Shown here: piece after piece, positions 2,496 through 34,228 of the stretch | Layout: each line of letters opens with the position of its first letter | Position numbering within the stretch: the first letter of the stretch is position 1 | UHGV virus genome: UHGV-0087833 | Direction: 5' to 3' (one strand) | From: a virus | DNA length: 39,497 nt | The notes under the pieces: generated by a model | What the model was told of the DNA's origin: nothing | The model's database searches: none | The model's input: only the letters and a program-made list of their open reading frames with translations | Made by a program: the position numbers and the translations under genes

Positions 2496-5270
2496 TTACA
2501 CTCCTGATACTTCAATAGATAGTTGAATCTTATTTGGCATCTTGTTGCTTAAATATATGGTTGCAAAGTCAAACGAAATATTTAAGTTATTTTCATCACC
2601 ATCATTATCTGAAAGAACTCCGGTTTTCAATACAACATTTTGCTTATTAATTTCTTTTAAAGGAGAAAAATCAATTGCCTCACCACGATGAATAAGAACA
2701 CCAACTGCAATTACCCCATGAATATCAAGTATGTCGTGCATATCAAGGCGAACACATGGGACATATCCACCAACAAGGATACTTGTAGATTTGTTGGCTT
2801 CAAGTGTTATTAGATATTTTCCGTCTGGTTGAACTATTGTTCCTGCTATTCCATCTGGCGTGTTGAACATACCGCAGTATCTGTATCCTGCTCCAACAGG
2901 AACAATTCTGTTACCGCCAAGATCATGGAAATTTCGAACAATTATTGCACCAGGAACTGATGAATAAACCATTACTGCCTCTGTTTGCCCTGATACAGAG
3001 TCTGATGTTTCTGGGTTCGCCATGCATAAATTACCACCAAAATAAATATTTTGGATTAGAGGGGTGAGGCCATCATTAACCTCAAAACGTAAAAAGCCCT
3101 TGAGAACAGTCCTTGCGGTATTATTCTTAATAACAACAGGAAGTTCTTTATAGTAAGAGTTTCTGTCTGTCTGTGCCAGAGTTGTTTCAATAAAAACAAA
3201 AGGTCTGTGATTACGTTGAGTTGCATTCACAGGTTTGTACCTCAAGTTGTATGGCAAAGACATCTCAGTAAAACCATCAATATAATTACAGTTCTGAATC
3301 GTGAACCCACCACCACTATATCTTACAAAAAAAGGAGCCGGTCCGCTAAATCCCCTGGCGTTCATTCCATCATACACTTCATTTAATCCGCGTATTACAC
3401 CAGCATAATACAAATTGACTGAATTGCCGCCTGTAAAAGTTGTTTCGTATGATGGGCCGTGTCCACCGCAACATGAATTTCTTGTATCGCCATCAGGGAA
3501 AAATTTAACTCCATCATATGCAGTTCCACCACCCATCATCGTTGGATTTATAATGTTATTATACAGTGATACCATTTGAGTCCCGCTTACATCAAGCCCC
3601 CTCCTGCAAGCAAATGCTATCATATCCACGACTGTGCAATAGCTGCTATTGTATATTTCAACACCATAACCAGTGCCGTTTGTTAAATCATATGCACGGT
3701 TTGAGTATTCAATATATGGCTCTATTATTTTCGTTCTGTAGCATGACTCAAGAAAAATTCCAGTTTCTGAAAAGCCGATTAGTTTTATTCCTTCTATATG
3801 CATATCAACAGCGCCATCTATCACAAGACCACGGAACCCCAAATCACCAGGAGATGCGTTCTGCGTGACAGGTCTTTCAAAATTGAAATCACCGACAATT
3901 CTGCCGTAGCATGGTTTTCTTTTATATATATTTGCCTTTCTTGTGATTTTAAACACGTCTCCAACAGATGGTTTAAACGGGAATGGTCCCTGAGCATATT
4001 CAAATTTTGCTGTTTTAGTGTCGTAATCCCAATGAGTTATGTATCTTGATATTCCGGCGTTAGCTCCGGTGACACCTGTTACTTTTACCTGATTGTATTG
4101 TTTTGTTAATGTTGCATCATTACCAAATGAGAATTCACCTCCGGATACAGATGCTGTTACGGTCGTTGAGTAATCATTGCTCGCAGAGTAGAAAAAATAA
4201 AATGCACCTGATATCTCCGCTTTTTTTGTTGCATTATCAAAAGCAGTAACAACATGCATTTCACCTTCACAAGCCTGTCCTCTATTATCTGTCTGAATTA
4301 AGCGATTGCCATGAATCATAATTATATCGCCTGCATCAACAGAATATGCTGAGTTAATTGATATTGATGTGTCACCAGGATTTATTGTTGAATTATAGTC
4401 AATTGGCGTGGCATCTCCACCTTCGAGTCTTATGAAATAATCATCAATCCAGTTTGGGCCAAGAGGCTCTTTTGCGGTTGACTTTAAGACAACCTTGCCA
4501 TCAGCTACCCAGTCATAGTTATAATTATCCCCGCCGCATTTTATGCGGCTAATCAAATACACACCAGAATCCCACTTCAGGCGTTTTCCGTTAGATGCGC
4601 AGTAAATGATGGCATTTGTTATTGCGTCTGTATCGTCAGTAATGCCATCCCCTTTTGCACCAAAATCGCGAACATTGACGATATCCCGCATTTTATCCTG
4701 GAACGTTCGGTACACAGCCCCAGAACCATACTGAATAAACCAACCAAAACCACCAACAACCCCGGCGATTGCAGCATCGACATAATTACGCATTGAGCGA
4801 TTATTTACAGCGTCCTGCTCAAGTGATGGATCTGCAAGGTTAGAAATTTTGTTTTGCTTTGCATCGTAATATTTTGCAAGCAAAGATGGTTTCATCAATG
4901 CACGTCTGAACCACCCAAAACATCGCTGGATCAGCATCGTCAGGTAGTCAAATGCATCTTCATGAACTTCGGGGAAAAATTTTCCCTGATTGCGAAGATC
5001 AGTCTCCTGCACCACATCAAGCACACGCTCTATCGTAATTCGCCAGCCAGCAGCAAGCGGCGACGGGAGAACCACTTCACCGCCACTATAAGTGCCCGCT
5101 CCAGTTACCTTATAACCGGTATCCAGAACCAATTCTGTTACGTTCCCGTTCAGGTCAGACACCTGAACAACCAGGTCGGTTTTTTTGAAAATACGGAAGG
5201 TATACGGAAATGATGTCGTAACGCCGTTACCGGTGTATTCGTTGTGGTCAACTTCGGTTGAGACCGTCAT
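2496..5270 (-). CDS. Tailspike / tail fiber protein
   Basis: 924 aa; N-terminal tail-attachment-like domain (YTGNGVTTSFPYTF), long beta-rich body; sits between ejection proteins and lysis genes. Confidence 0.85.
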   Translation of the reverse strand: MTVSTEVDHNEYTGNGVTTSFPYTFRIFKKTDLVVQVSDLNGNVTELVLDTGYKVTGAGTYSGGEVVLPSPLAAGWRITIERVLDVVQETDLRNQGKFFPEVHEDAFDYLTMLIQRCFGWFRRALMKPSLLAKYYDAKQNKISNLADPSLEQDAVNNRSMRNYVDAAIAGVVGGFGWFIQYGSGAVYRTFQDKMRDIVNVRDFGAKGDGITDDTDAITNAIIYCASNGKRLKWDSGVYLISRIKCGGDNYNYDWVADGKVVLKSTAKEPLGPNWIDDYFIRLEGGDATPIDYNSTINPGDTSISINSAYSVDAGDIIMIHGNRLIQTDNRGQACEGEMHVVTAFDNATKKAEISGAFYFFYSASNDYSTTVTASVSGGEFSFGNDATLTKQYNQVKVTGVTGANAGISRYITHWDYDTKTAKFEYAQGPFPFKPSVGDVFKITRKANIYKRKPCYGRIVGDFNFERPVTQNASPGDLGFRGLVIDGAVDMHIEGIKLIGFSETGIFLESCYRTKIIEPYIEYSNRAYDLTNGTGYGVEIYNSSYCTVVDMIAFACRRGLDVSGTQMVSLYNNIINPTMMGGGTAYDGVKFFPDGDTRNSCCGGHGPSYETTFTGGNSVNLYYAGVIRGLNEVYDGMNARGFSGPAPFFVRYSGGGFTIQNCNYIDGFTEMSLPYNLRYKPVNATQRNHRPFVFIETTLAQTDRNSYYKELPVVIKNNTARTVLKGFLRFEVNDGLTPLIQNIYFGGNLCMANPETSDSVSGQTEAVMVYSSVPGAIIVRNFHDLGGNRIVPVGAGYRYCGMFNTPDGIAGTIVQPDGKYLITLEANKSTSILVGGYVPCVRLDMHDILDIHGVIAVGVLIHRGEAIDFSPLKEINKQNVVLKTGVLSDNDGDENNLNISFDFATIYLSNKMPNKIQLSIEVSGV

Positions 5271-5426: not shown

Positions 5427-5446
5427 TACTGTATAAATATACAGTT
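5427..5446. promoter_or_regulatory. LexA (SOS) box TACTGTATAAATATACAGTT
   Basis: CTGT-N8-ACAG with AT-rich centre, about 20 bp upstream of the first antirepressor-like gene. Confidence 0.8.
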
Positions 5447-5465: not shown

Positions 5466-5723
5466 ATGCAGCAGTATCACTATCCACTGGAAGACGGATT
5501 TACCGAAAGGATTCACACGCCGGGAGGCGTCAGGTCACTGGTGGAGGGATCGCACTTGATGAAATTACTCCGGGATCTCGATAAGGATGGATTTAATGTC
5601 GATGGCCCACTTGCCGAACTGACTGCACTGATTAACTACGTCACCAGCTCACAGATGTCTATGCGGGATCTGCAAACACATCTCGACTATTGTGCCGAAC
5701 AATTACGAAAACAAACCAGATAA
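5466..5723 (+). CDS. Antirepressor C-terminal-domain paralog (stand-alone)
   Basis: 85 aa; clearly similar to the C-terminal 50 aa of the downstream Ant (LMKLLRDLDKDGFNVDG...DLQTHLDYC vs LMNLLNQLQEDGHDVSG...DIQTHAEYI); GGAGAA RBS. Confidence 0.65.
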   Translation: MQQYHYPLEDGFTERIHTPGGVRSLVEGSHLMKLLRDLDKDGFNVDGPLAELTALINYVTSSQMSMRDLQTHLDYCAEQLRKQTR

Positions 5724-5754
5724 GGTTTGCAATTACCAAGTAGAGTGTTTATTA

Positions 5755-5769
5755 TTACCTTTTCGGTAA
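5755..5769. promoter_or_regulatory. Operator palindrome TTACC-ttttc-GGTAA (site 2)
   Basis: Perfect inverted repeat just downstream of the Ant-C paralog stop. Confidence 0.6.
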
Positions 5770-5855
5770 ATTTACATCGCACTCCTCTTGTGCCATAGTA
5801 ATCGGGCACTGGCAAAATCCAGTGCCGGGATTGGCGTCCCGGGTTACTACAGAGG

Positions 5856-5887
5856 CACATATGCCGCATAAGCGGTTTTTTTATGTG
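5856..5887 (+). terminator. Hairpin plus T7 run inside the ant leader (intrinsic terminator/attenuator candidate)
   Basis: CACATA...CCGC-ataa-GCGG-TTTTTTT-ATGTG; upstream hairpins at about 5803-5826 and 5827-5844. Confidence 0.45.
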
Positions 5888-6035
5888 TAAAGCGCACCTA
5901 TTCTATGGTGGGCTGTGTGGGGGCACCGAAAGGTGCGCCGGGTCCTTTGTAGCCGGTTACGCCAACCCTGCACAGTTCACCACCAACCGATTGGCGTCGG
6001 TAGTGGTGATTAACCTAACTACAAAGGTGATCACT

Positions 6036-6722
6036 ATGACTGCTAACGTAACCCCATCTGTTTTTCATTTTGAATCAGAAGCCACCATTCGAGCCATTGT
6101 TATTGATGGAAATCCTTGGTTTGTTGCCAAAGACGTTATTAAAGCTCTTCAACTGACAAACCCCACTATGTCAATAAAATCTCTTGATGATGATGAAAGG
6201 GCTAAATTTAACTTAGGCCGTCAAGGTGAAACCAATATTATCAACGAGTCAGGCCTCTACACACTGATCCTCCGCTGCCGCGACGCAGTGACACCAGGCA
6301 CTATCCCCTACCGCTTTCGTAAATGGGTTACAGGTGAGGTTCTTCCTCAGATCCGCCGCACCGGAAGTTACATTAAAAACTCGCTCCCGCAGGAAGAACG
6401 CATAAAGATAGTTGCCGACCAGGTAGCCAACGCCACAGCATCAGCAGTGATGCAGGCAATGAAGATAGAGAACAAAACCTACAGTGCCCCACTGAAGCCC
6501 GGCTACCGCAGCCTGATTCATTCTCCGTCTGGTGTTCTCGGCCTGACGGAGAACTCACTGCTGATGAATCTGCTGAACCAGTTACAGGAAGACGGGCACG
6601 ACGTATCGGGCGCGGCGGCGGAGCTGACCACCATGTTCTGCTACATTGTTGGTGTGAGCAAATGCCTGCGTGATATCCAGACCCACGCGGAGTACATCAA
6701 CGACAAGGCTGGGTTCTTCTGA
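6036..6722 (+). CDS. ant: Antirepressor Ant (Bro-N domain plus Ant C-terminal domain)
   Basis: Bro-N signature (GNPWFVAKDVIKAL...LDDDE...ESGLYTLIL...FRKWVTGEVLPQIRRTGSY); start at internal ATG 6036 with AAAGG RBS. Confidence 0.85.
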   Translation: MTANVTPSVFHFESEATIRAIVIDGNPWFVAKDVIKALQLTNPTMSIKSLDDDERAKFNLGRQGETNIINESGLYTLILRCRDAVTPGTIPYRFRKWVTGEVLPQIRRTGSYIKNSLPQEERIKIVADQVANATASAVMQAMKIENKTYSAPLKPGYRSLIHSPSGVLGLTENSLLMNLLNQLQEDGHDVSGAAAELTTMFCYIVGVSKCLRDIQTHAEYINDKAGFF

Positions 6723-24234: not shown

Positions 24235-24249
24235 TTACCTTTCAGGTAA
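24235..24249. promoter_or_regulatory. Operator palindrome TTACC-tttca-GGTAA (site 4) next to TTGACA
   Basis: Perfect inverted repeat; TTGACA at 24213-24218. Confidence 0.55.
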
Positions 24250-24571: not shown

Positions 24572-24648
24572 GTGGCATTAGCTCAGTCGGACAGAGCAAC
24601 CGCCTTCTAAGCGGTTGGTCGCAGGTTCGAATCCTGCATGCCACGCCA
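24572..24648 (+). tRNA. tRNA-Arg (anticodon UCU, reads AGA)
   Basis: 7-bp acceptor stem GTGGCAT/ATGCCAC, T-loop GGTTCGAATCC, anticodon loop CTTCTAA, encoded CCA. Confidence 0.9.
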
Positions 24649-33509: not shown

Positions 33510-34094
33510 ATGAAAAGTATCCAGGACGTCCGCAGGCAAAATCTCAACGACTTGATCGACCGTGAATTCAATGGTGTTCAGACGCGGATGGCTGAAAAAC
33601 TTGGAACTCAGGCAAATCTGGTAAACCGCTGGGCTCTTGGCAAGAAGGTTATCGGCGACCAGGTTGCGCGAAAAATTGAAGCTGCCGCCAATAAACCCCG
33701 TAACTGGCTTGATATCGATCGCTCGCTTTCTCAGGAAGGTTTTCAGCCTGTCGGACCAAGCGACATTGGTCAACTGGCGGCTCACAACCTGGAACGCTGG
33801 ATGAGCGAAAGCCGCGACCTTTCAACGCAGGGAAAACTTCACCGCGCATCCGGCGTCGCCCAGGTAACAATCAGCCGCCTGTTAAACAATGAGGTCAGCG
33901 TTTCCATTTCCACCCTGGAGAATGTTGCATCCGCATTTGGGCGTCACGGATATGAATTACTGATTCACCCGCACGACCCCGCGACTATCAACTATGACCG
34001 CTCGCGCTACGCATTGTTACCTGAAACAGAGAAGGCAAAGATCGAAAGTTACATTGAATTTGTCATCAACCAGAACGAAAAAAATAAACAATAA
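33510..34094 (+). CDS. Prophage repressor candidate, tandem HTH_XRE domains, no S24 peptidase domain
   Basis: Two HTH-like segments (QTRMAEKLGTQANLVNRW and HRASGVAQVTISRLL); no Ser/Lys autocleavage module; position equals lambda cI. Confidence 0.6.
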   Translation: MKSIQDVRRQNLNDLIDREFNGVQTRMAEKLGTQANLVNRWALGKKVIGDQVARKIEAAANKPRNWLDIDRSLSQEGFQPVGPSDIGQLAAHNLERWMSESRDLSTQGKLHRASGVAQVTISRLLNNEVSVSISTLENVASAFGRHGYELLIHPHDPATINYDRSRYALLPETEKAKIESYIEFVINQNEKNKQ

Positions 34095-34213: not shown

Positions 34214-34228
34214 TTACCTCAACGGTAA
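34214..34228. promoter_or_regulatory. Operator TTACC-tcaac-GGTAA (site 12, OL-like) at the leftward-operon promoter
   Basis: Perfect palindrome downstream of TTGACA; extra GGTAA half-site at 34237. Confidence 0.6.

Follow-up and report, generated by a model that had tools for sequence, protein, structure and literature searches.

Copies of the IsrK and C4 regulatory RNA families upstream of the antirepressor gene ant in a phiV10-like phage

The virus genome UHGV-0087833, analysed here as a single stretch of 39,497 nucleotides (the window), is that of a temperate Escherichia coli podophage of the phiV10/epsilon15-like type (Uetakevirus), and most of it is 96% identical to HEMP4, phiv142-3 and phiV10. 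Between a tail-fibre gene on the minus strand (2496-5270) and the virion genes lies a small module in which a spacer of 312 bp separates an 85-codon open reading frame (ORF; 5466-5723) from ant (6036-6722), the gene of a Bro-N antirepressor. The spacer contains copies, hitherto without annotation, of two regulatory RNAs well known from phages, IsrK and the C4 antisense RNA of phage P1, which most likely act on the translation of ant, directly downstream. The initial annotation had described a non-coding, GC-rich spacer holding an operator palindrome, two stable hairpins, a hairpin followed by a run of T and a hairpin with a GAAA tetraloop. All of these features are present within about 3 nt of the positions first given for them and lie beyond chance, the second hairpin by itself reaching only z -1.6 against shuffled sequences. 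The GC content is indeed raised, at 0.54-0.57 across 5825-6049 against 0.39-0.47 in the flanks, and the spacer as a whole has a folding energy of -134.5 kcal/mol, where shuffles reach -101.8 (z -5.9). Given the family matches set out below, the two hairpins and the terminator belong to an IsrK-family RNA, and the tetraloop hairpin is part of a C4-family RNA. The 17-bp stem of C4, its second hairpin (5937-5957) and the complementarities between loops and targets had escaped that first reading.

The family assignments come from a scan of both strands of the window against Rfam with a reporting limit of E<=1, in which no family matched besides the isrK, C4 and c4-a1b1 models, the sar RNA of P22 being among those without a match. 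The isrK model (RF01394) is covered over its full length (positions 1-77 of 77) with 74.7 bits, where the gathering threshold (GA) is 50, and the C4 model (RF01695) over positions 1-87 of 87 with 79.5 bits (GA 45), each on the plus strand only. The c4-a1b1 model (RF03163) scores 44.1 bits at 5793-5845, just under its GA of 46.7, and is taken as support and not as a hit.

Within the IsrK-like element, hairpin 1 (5806-5825) has a folding energy of -13.6 kcal/mol (z -4.6). Hairpin 2 (5826-5841, -8.6 kcal/mol) is not significant on its energy alone and is accepted because it is conserved, being present in all homologues. The internal intrinsic terminator proposed at first is recovered both by folding and by a consensus scan, as a GC-rich stem of 5 bp (5863-5876, z -3.4) followed by U7 at 5876-5882. 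Across the homologues 92.2% of cells are paired, with 7 of the 18 pairs changed on both sides, and five of the seven pairs of hairpin 1 carry such double changes. The element as a whole folds at z -2.5 on the plus strand and z -2.1 on the minus strand. The layout typical of isrK, a read-through region and then an antirepressor gene, is found here with the antirepressor at 6036; the orf45 frame itself is not conserved.

The C4 element has the architecture of its family, with a 17-bp stem (5906-5922/5966-5982) enclosing the tetraloop hairpin (5923-5936, z -4.1) and a second hairpin, for 17 + 5 + 5 bp in all. Its fold reaches -45.2 kcal/mol (z -3.6) on the plus strand and -32.5 kcal/mol (z -0.7) on the minus strand, and its stems hold conserved G-U pairs, which read as C-A on the opposite strand. 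Because of these pairs, and because the minus-strand fold is at chance level, the coding strand of C4 is fixed as plus. In an alignment of 11 diverse sequences 98.3% of cells are paired and 11 of the 27 pairs have changed on both sides; none of 500 shuffles pairs as highly, and when the structure is slid by 1-3 columns only 36-50% of cells can pair. The stems of both RNAs show compensatory changes among the homologues. Signatures of processing are also present, namely U/GGU at 5906/5907 and an ACCA-like tail at 5982-5985 (P1 c4, positions 48343-48419, served as the reference), and in c4 processing RNase P cuts at a GGW site (PMC5320573). By this analogy, the mature C4 is predicted to span about 5907-5984, or ~78 nt.

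The two RNAs and the ant leader carry short complementary segments, named here after those of P1. The segment a' of C4 pairs at 7/7 positions both with a1, in the loop of IsrK hairpin 2, and with a2, in the ant leader; b', in the loop of the second C4 hairpin, pairs at 9/9 positions with b1 and with b2 (Table 1). Three copies of the composite motif UUGGCGU-N(5-30)-CUACARAGG stand in the window, where 0.01 would be expected. These three sites are a1b1, a2b2 and, as the reverse complement, a'b', with none elsewhere in the window, and a search for further C4 targets in the phage genome found none.

An isrK match followed after 18-26 nt by a C4 match, on the same strand and 5' of an antirepressor-type gene, was found with Rfam in 11 other phages and in Gifsy-1, while P1 carries c4-a1b1 and then C4, the isrK model having no match there at threshold. 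Loops and targets were compared in 14 phages and in 64 unique C4 elements from IMG/VR viral contigs, the latter comprising 39 distinct b' and 18 distinct a' variants. The window shares its loop/target set (CCUUUGUAG/CUACAAAGG) with Phi05_1387B, and phiV10, ZX5 and TL-2011b have CCUUUUAG/CUAAAAGG. In phiv142-3 both b (CCACUUAG/CUAAGUGG) and a (AGACCAA/UUGGUCU) are changed, and the Stx phages, a Yersinia phage, APSE-8, Gifsy-1 and P1 each have matched a/b sets of their own. Close relatives thus differ by matching changes at the loop and at both of its targets. For b' and b2 the median cognate match is 9, with 36 of 39 at 7 or more, and for b' and b1 it is 8.5, with 30 of 39 at 7 or more; the non-cognate median is 5.5 in both cases. 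For the 18 a' variants the cognate match with a2 is never below 7, where non-cognate pairs average 4.5. In nearly all of the 39 representatives b2 lies over, or just 5' of, the GGAGG or GAGG of the downstream gene. That the spacer is a small regulatory RNA locus controlling ant, as had been suggested, is backed by the Rfam matches to isrK and C4, by covariation and by the complementarity of a loop to the ribosome-binding site.

Some IMG/VR contigs carry two or three C4-like elements on one strand, ~655 bp apart (L048, 9712-11105; L094, 7844-8578), which suggests tandemly repeated C4-regulated cassettes.

Table 1. The ant leader and its promoter region, in window coordinates
Feature	Position	Strand	Basis or remark
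Promoter-like site TTGCAA-17-TATTAT	5727-5755	+	Consensus scan 9/12; putative function
Operator-like palindrome TTACC-N5-GGTAA	5755-5769	.	One of 14 dispersed copies; probable prophage-repressor site
Promoter-like site TTTACA-17-(TG)CATAGT	5771-5799	+	Predicted start of the IsrK-like RNA at G5806
IsrK-family small RNA (a1b1 equivalent plus intrinsic terminator)	5806-5882	+	Rfam RF01394
a1 UUGGCGU	5831-5837	+	Loop of IsrK hairpin 2; complement of a'
b1 CUACAGAGG	5847-5855	+	Inside IsrK; 9/9 with b', including one G-U pair
C4 antisense RNA family member	5901-5987	+	Rfam RF01695
b' CCUUUGUAG	5944-5952	+	11-nt loop of C4 hairpin 2 (stem 5937-5941/5953-5957)
a' ACGCCAA	5959-5965	+	Single-stranded junction (8 nt) 3' of C4 hairpin 2
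a2 UUGGCGU	5991-5997	+	ant leader; target of a'
Leader hairpin 6003-6012/6028-6037	6003-6037	+	b2 in loop, ant AUG paired; z -3.3 for 5988-6045
b2 CUACAAAGG	6019-6027	+	Perfect 9-nt complement of b'; overlaps ant Shine-Dalgarno AAAGGUG (6023-6029)
ant, Bro-N antirepressor, 228 amino acids, regulated gene	6036-6722	+	Pfam, PHROG, PGAP start

Ant, the product of the gene under this leader, matches Pfam Bro-N at 5.4e-20 and the PHROG anti-repressor Ant at 1e-55. It is 82% identical to the ORF4 anti-repressor of phage ZX5, overexpression of which lowers lysogeny about 1000-fold (PMC9782041). The Shine-Dalgarno sequence stands 6 nt before AUG 6036, and 8 nt separate b2 from that AUG. The 5' arm of the leader hairpin contains GUGGUGA (6003-6009), with a complement in the 3' strand of the C4 stem (5977-5983). 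A GGUGGUGA-like sequence follows C4, just after a2, in all enterobacterial homologues examined and has a diverged counterpart in P1. Its pairing could form an alternative helix competing with C4 folding in the unprocessed transcript, and this helix may be the counterpart of the alternative structures A and B of Gifsy-1.

Protein-coding readings of the spacer fare poorly. The ORF opening inside the terminator at 5883 had been doubted from the outset and is not used here, because the PGAP annotation in RefSeq starts the BRO-N coding sequence (CDS) at the position equal to 6036 and because 5883-6035 is RNA-coding by covariation. A conserved AUG at 5905 opens an ORF of 15 codons that ends at UAG 5950-5952, in the b' loop, 84 nt before the ant AUG. 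In the homologues the corresponding ORF runs for 3, 8, 14, 15, 33, 35, 45 or 64 codons or into the downstream gene, and because of this variation in length it is not regarded as a conserved protein. No ORF resembling the icd of P1 immI lies between C4 and ant. In several deposited records the C4 element is nonetheless translated as protein, as in ZX5 (L002, 2697-2810), Stx phage P27 (L003, 2606-2749) and Nil2 (L009, 963-1136), under the labels 'ash family protein', 'putative protein' and 'ORF57'. The frame is not conserved between these phages, and the CDSs are probably a mis-annotated RNA gene; the 'ash family protein' peptide of ZX5, scanned against Pfam and PHROGs, gave 0 matches.

Upstream of the RNAs, the operator-like character first ascribed to the palindrome is strengthened by its distribution. 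The sequence (A)TTACC-N5-GGTAA(T) has 14 copies in the window, ten of them perfect and four with one mismatch (1816, 5375, 5755, 6795, 24235, 27377, 27395, 31047, 31109, 33392, 33440, 34152, 34214 and 39296), against 0.62 expected, and none of 100 shuffles reaches 14. Nearly all copies fall in promoter-bearing intergenic regions, mostly beside TTGACA-type promoters, and they are paired around the repressor gene. To judge from this pattern, they have the appearance of an operator regulon that spans the genome and recalls the C1 operators of P1, and the palindrome is the probable operator of the prophage repressor. The candidate repressor (33510-34094, plus strand) has 194 amino acids and two helix-turn-helix regions and is without an S24 peptidase domain, which fits induction driven by an antirepressor better than RecA-mediated self-cleavage. 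The arms of the palindrome are kept in the relatives. Its 5-nt spacer in phiV10 (TTACC GCAAA GGTAA) is the reverse complement of that in the others (TTACC TTTGC GGTAA), and this difference may reflect a small inversion across the palindrome. One operator copy, at 24235, lies ~340 bp upstream of a tRNA-Arg(TCT) gene (24572-24648). A tRNA-like element was also considered, and ARAGORN gives only the tRNA-Arg at 24572.

Two promoter-like sites flank the copy at 5755. Its first base is also the final base of the -10 of the upstream site, and it abuts the -35 of the predicted IsrK promoter; the same succession of -10 and operator recurs at 34214. The distance from the -10 to the predicted +1 of the downstream site equals that in Gifsy-1 isrK, where position 1 of the Rfam hit follows a TATATT -10 and where promoter activity has been demonstrated (PMC4825925). 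Further upstream, a perfect LexA box, CTGTATAAATATACAG, stands at 5429-5444, just 5' of the 85-codon ORF. The product of this ORF shares 41% identity with residues 147-224 of Ant, its C-terminal domain, and falls with Ant in phrog_450; probably it is a small antirepressor under SOS control, comparable to 186 Tum or the Gifsy Gfo proteins. Between this ORF and the IsrK/C4 module no terminator was found. In TL-2011b (L006, 65-1153) the sequence 5' of the operator is wholly unlike that of other Uetakeviruses, which may be a rearrangement that removed the LexA-controlled small gene, and an opposite-strand feature annotated as 'similar to hypothetical protein' runs across the RNA module.

How such a module might act can be gauged from its two best-studied relatives. 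The c4 of P1 is a processed RNA of ~77 nt that pairs with a2 and b2 and represses Ant synthesis (PMC8546580; PMC12197685). In Gifsy-1, transcription from the isrK promoter reads through to give an isrK-orf45-anrP RNA from which nothing is translated, translation of anrP increases about 140-fold when IsrK is provided in trans, and compensatory mutants at G28/C162 and G31/C159 prove a pairing called 'helix b-I' (PMC4825925). By a position count on the sequences made here, G28 and G31 of Gifsy-1 IsrK fall in a1 and C162 and C159 in a'; since the mutated positions map in this way, 'helix b-I' is the a1-a' pairing. The 'orf45/STnc1160' region of Gifsy-1 is also the position of an Rfam C4 match. In lysogens, both IsrK and STnc1160 are strongly expressed whatever the condition tested (PMC7067206).

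On this basis the spacer is read, with a probability of about 0.8, as a translational switch after the pattern of P1/P7 immI, built from two RNAs encoded on the same strand as ant. The family assignments, the folds and their covariation, and the complementarity among the three sites were computed here; where the transcripts end, how they are processed, which way the regulation runs and that IsrK serves as a decoy are carried over by homology. Transcription would most likely start at about G5806, from the TTTACA-17-TGnCATAGT site, with additional entry possible from the promoter under the operator (5727-5755) and from the LexA-controlled gene further 5'. The majority of transcripts would end at the weak terminator (5863-5882), giving a 77-nt IsrK-like RNA that displays a1 and b1, and those that read through would carry the C4 element together with the ant message. 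From the latter C4 would probably be excised, as in P1, by RNase P at U5906/G5907 and a 3' trimming activity. The b' and a' segments of the mature C4 could then pair with b2 and a2 and cover the ant Shine-Dalgarno sequence, so that Ant would remain untranslated and the prophage repressor protected. The IsrK-like RNA, which displays the same targets, may bind C4, either free or within the long transcript, and relieve the block, as has been shown for IsrK of Gifsy-1. By analogy with P1, and in keeping with the co-variation, C4 would repress antirepressor synthesis in trans and set the specificity of immunity; binding of Hfq and trans activation of translation from the read-through mRNA are known only for Gifsy-1 IsrK and may extend to the present RNA.

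Several points weigh against this translational switch. The authors of the Gifsy-1 study credit translation of orf45, which overlaps C4, and its coupling to anrP, and not relief at the anrP ribosome-binding site; and translation rises when the a1-a' pairing of Gifsy-1 is broken in cis, which a simple decoy model does not predict (PMC4825925). As no icd stands between b2 and ant, the Rho-dependent polarity step of P1 may not apply. The promoter predicted for the IsrK-like RNA is a 9/12 consensus match, and the scan returns such sites at chance density (4 found against 2.8 expected), so the promoter assignments rest on alignment with Gifsy-1 and P1 and not on the scan. Finally, co-folding of C4 with the ant leader by RNAcofold gains a free-energy change (ddG) of only -1.1 kcal/mol, and almost nothing with IsrK either; this result was not counted against the model because a nested-structure method cannot represent contacts between loops.

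A more specific form of the switch is offered tentatively. The IsrK-like RNA may be a dedicated decoy for C4, an anti-antisense RNA, with the leaky terminator setting the ratio of IsrK to C4, so that the whole would amount to an RNA-only toggle at the ant ribosome-binding site without a leader peptide. Were this so, 'orf45/STnc1160' of Gifsy-1 would be a C4 RNA and the published model would have to be read anew. The co-varying a/b variants, which number in the dozens, would then form a heteroimmunity code insulating the antirepressors of co-resident prophages from one another.

The alternative that survives best is activation of the Gifsy-1 kind and nothing more, in which pairing of IsrK with C4 in cis locks the read-through RNA, the short IsrK opens it, the ORF from AUG 5905 is translated and coupled to ant, and C4 is no repressor in trans. 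It has the genetics of Gifsy-1 behind it (PMC4825925) and the conserved AUG at 5905 as a starting point. With a reading frame of 15 codons, not conserved in length and ending so far ahead of the ant AUG, the coupling cannot operate here, and the co-variation of b' with b2 over the downstream Shine-Dalgarno sequence in 36 of 39 specificity types is left unexplained. As the sole account of the locus it is unlikely.

Somewhat less likely still is the attenuator suggested at first, in which alternative terminator and antiterminator folds would leave regulation solely to the rate of read-through at 5863-5882. One part of this idea holds, in that the leader has a genuine intrinsic terminator and a read-through step; the read-through fold also pairs 5855-5861 with 5882-5888 around it, and modulation of termination by STnc1160 was considered by the Gifsy-1 authors (PMC4825925). 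The evidence gives no support to alternative folding, as no conserved sequence competes with the terminator stem and the contacts that are conserved and co-vary are those that the loops of C4 make at the ribosome-binding site of ant and at the decoy copy in IsrK. In Gifsy-1, moreover, the main effect is on translation (139-fold) over transcription (8-fold) (PMC4825925). Termination is probably one component of the two-RNA switch, setting the IsrK:C4 ratio, and not the whole mechanism.

Very improbable is a minus-strand cis-antisense RNA following the logic of P22 sar, to which the initial annotation had compared the locus, or else a coding stretch, be it an Ant lengthened at its N-terminus from 5883 or a small 'Ash/orf45' protein. 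ORFs can be drawn (5883-6722 and 5915-6013; on the minus strand 5687-5869 and 5881-5973) and ZX5 has its 'ash family protein' over C4, but both RNAs and all Rfam matches are on the ant strand, sar gave no match, the minus-strand C4 fold is at shuffle level and the conserved G-U pairs are strand-specific, no minus-strand terminator and no minus-strand promoter match was found within 5724-6035, and the ZX5 peptide without a Pfam or PHROG family, the unconserved ORF length and the PGAP start of ant at 6036 all speak against translation.

The kind of system is already known, as both RNAs are curated families and their tandem before a Bro-N gene is annotated in the APSE phages and has been dissected in Gifsy-1. 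In the literature searched, no description of the module in Uetakevirus was found, the ZX5 paper mentioning no small RNA (PMC9782041), nor was an explicit identification of the Gifsy-1 STnc1160/orf45 as a C4 RNA. The occurrence in Uetakevirus and the identity of STnc1160 with C4 are refinements and not a new kind of system. The main value of the finding lies in annotation. With BLAST the spacer was located in 235 phage records and, among 5426 complete E. coli genomes, in 941, where RefSeq annotates only the BRO-N protein. Recognition of the module explains the silencing of the antirepressor in phiV10/epsilon15-like and Stx prophages and links three seldom-connected literatures, on P1 c4, on Gifsy-1 IsrK and on the APSE annotations. 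Further, the natural specificity variants offer a ready set for testing RNA-based heteroimmunity.

Among the known systems, P22 sar shares the general theme of a small RNA limiting antirepressor synthesis in a secondary immunity region beside a tail gene of a temperate podovirus. While sar lies on the opposite strand across the start of ant and is fully complementary to it, the regulator described here is co-directional and structured and would act through two short loop contacts. The CI RNA of P4 (seqA/seqC) is likewise processed from the leader of its own operon and has complementary target copies upstream and downstream, and seqA was named a structural homologue of IsrK by the Gifsy-1 authors (PMC4825925); its action, however, is transcription termination of replication genes and not on an antirepressor ribosome-binding site.

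Closer in arrangement are the APSE phages of Hamiltonella, in which GenBank records annotate isrK and C4, with putative a' and b', directly 5' of a Bro-N gene and with no ORF between (PMC7313666). The APSE specificities are different (AUGCGAA and CCUGUUUAG) and the system is known from sequence annotation alone; the Stx phages and APSE share the direct C4-to-antirepressor arrangement of the window. The isrK-orf45(STnc1160)-anrP locus of Gifsy-1 in Salmonella has the same isrK/C4 tandem, identical a1, a' and a2 (UUGGCGU/ACGCCAA) and a Bro-N-type antirepressor downstream with its Shine-Dalgarno sequence under b2, and no other homologue has been analysed by direct genetics, either for the a1-a' helix or for the activating effect of the short RNA (PMC4825925). 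It differs in its b specificity (CGGUGAU against CCUUUGUAG here), in a 45-codon ORF ending on the anrP start codon where only a 15-codon remnant is found here, and in its place after Q in a lambdoid phage and not beside a tail-fibre gene. In the model published for Gifsy-1, STnc1160 is not called a C4 RNA.

The closest counterpart in design is immI of P1 and P7 (a1 b1 - c4 - a2 b2 - icd - ant1/ant2), which has the same Rfam antisense family and arranges its elements alike along one strand; in the GenBank record of P1, a1, b1, c4, a2 and b2 are annotated in the order seen in the window. The spacings are alike, with a gap of 9 nt between a1 and b1 here against 7 nt in P1, and of 21 nt between a2 and b2 against 22 nt. 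In both, b2 lies at a ribosome-binding site and C4 has a GGU motif at its 5' processing site and a CC(A) tail at its 3' end, and a repressor operator (the C1 operator Oc4 in P1, the probable one here) sits at the upstream one of two tandem promoters (P2c4/P1c4 in P1). The differences are equally clear, as there is no icd here and b2 covers the Shine-Dalgarno sequence of ant itself, a1b1 ends in an intrinsic terminator and can therefore exist as a separate small RNA, and Ant is of the Bro-N and not the P1 Ant1/2 type, in an integrated epsilon15/phiV10-like podovirus and not a plasmid prophage. Overall, the locus would work like immI without copying its gene order.

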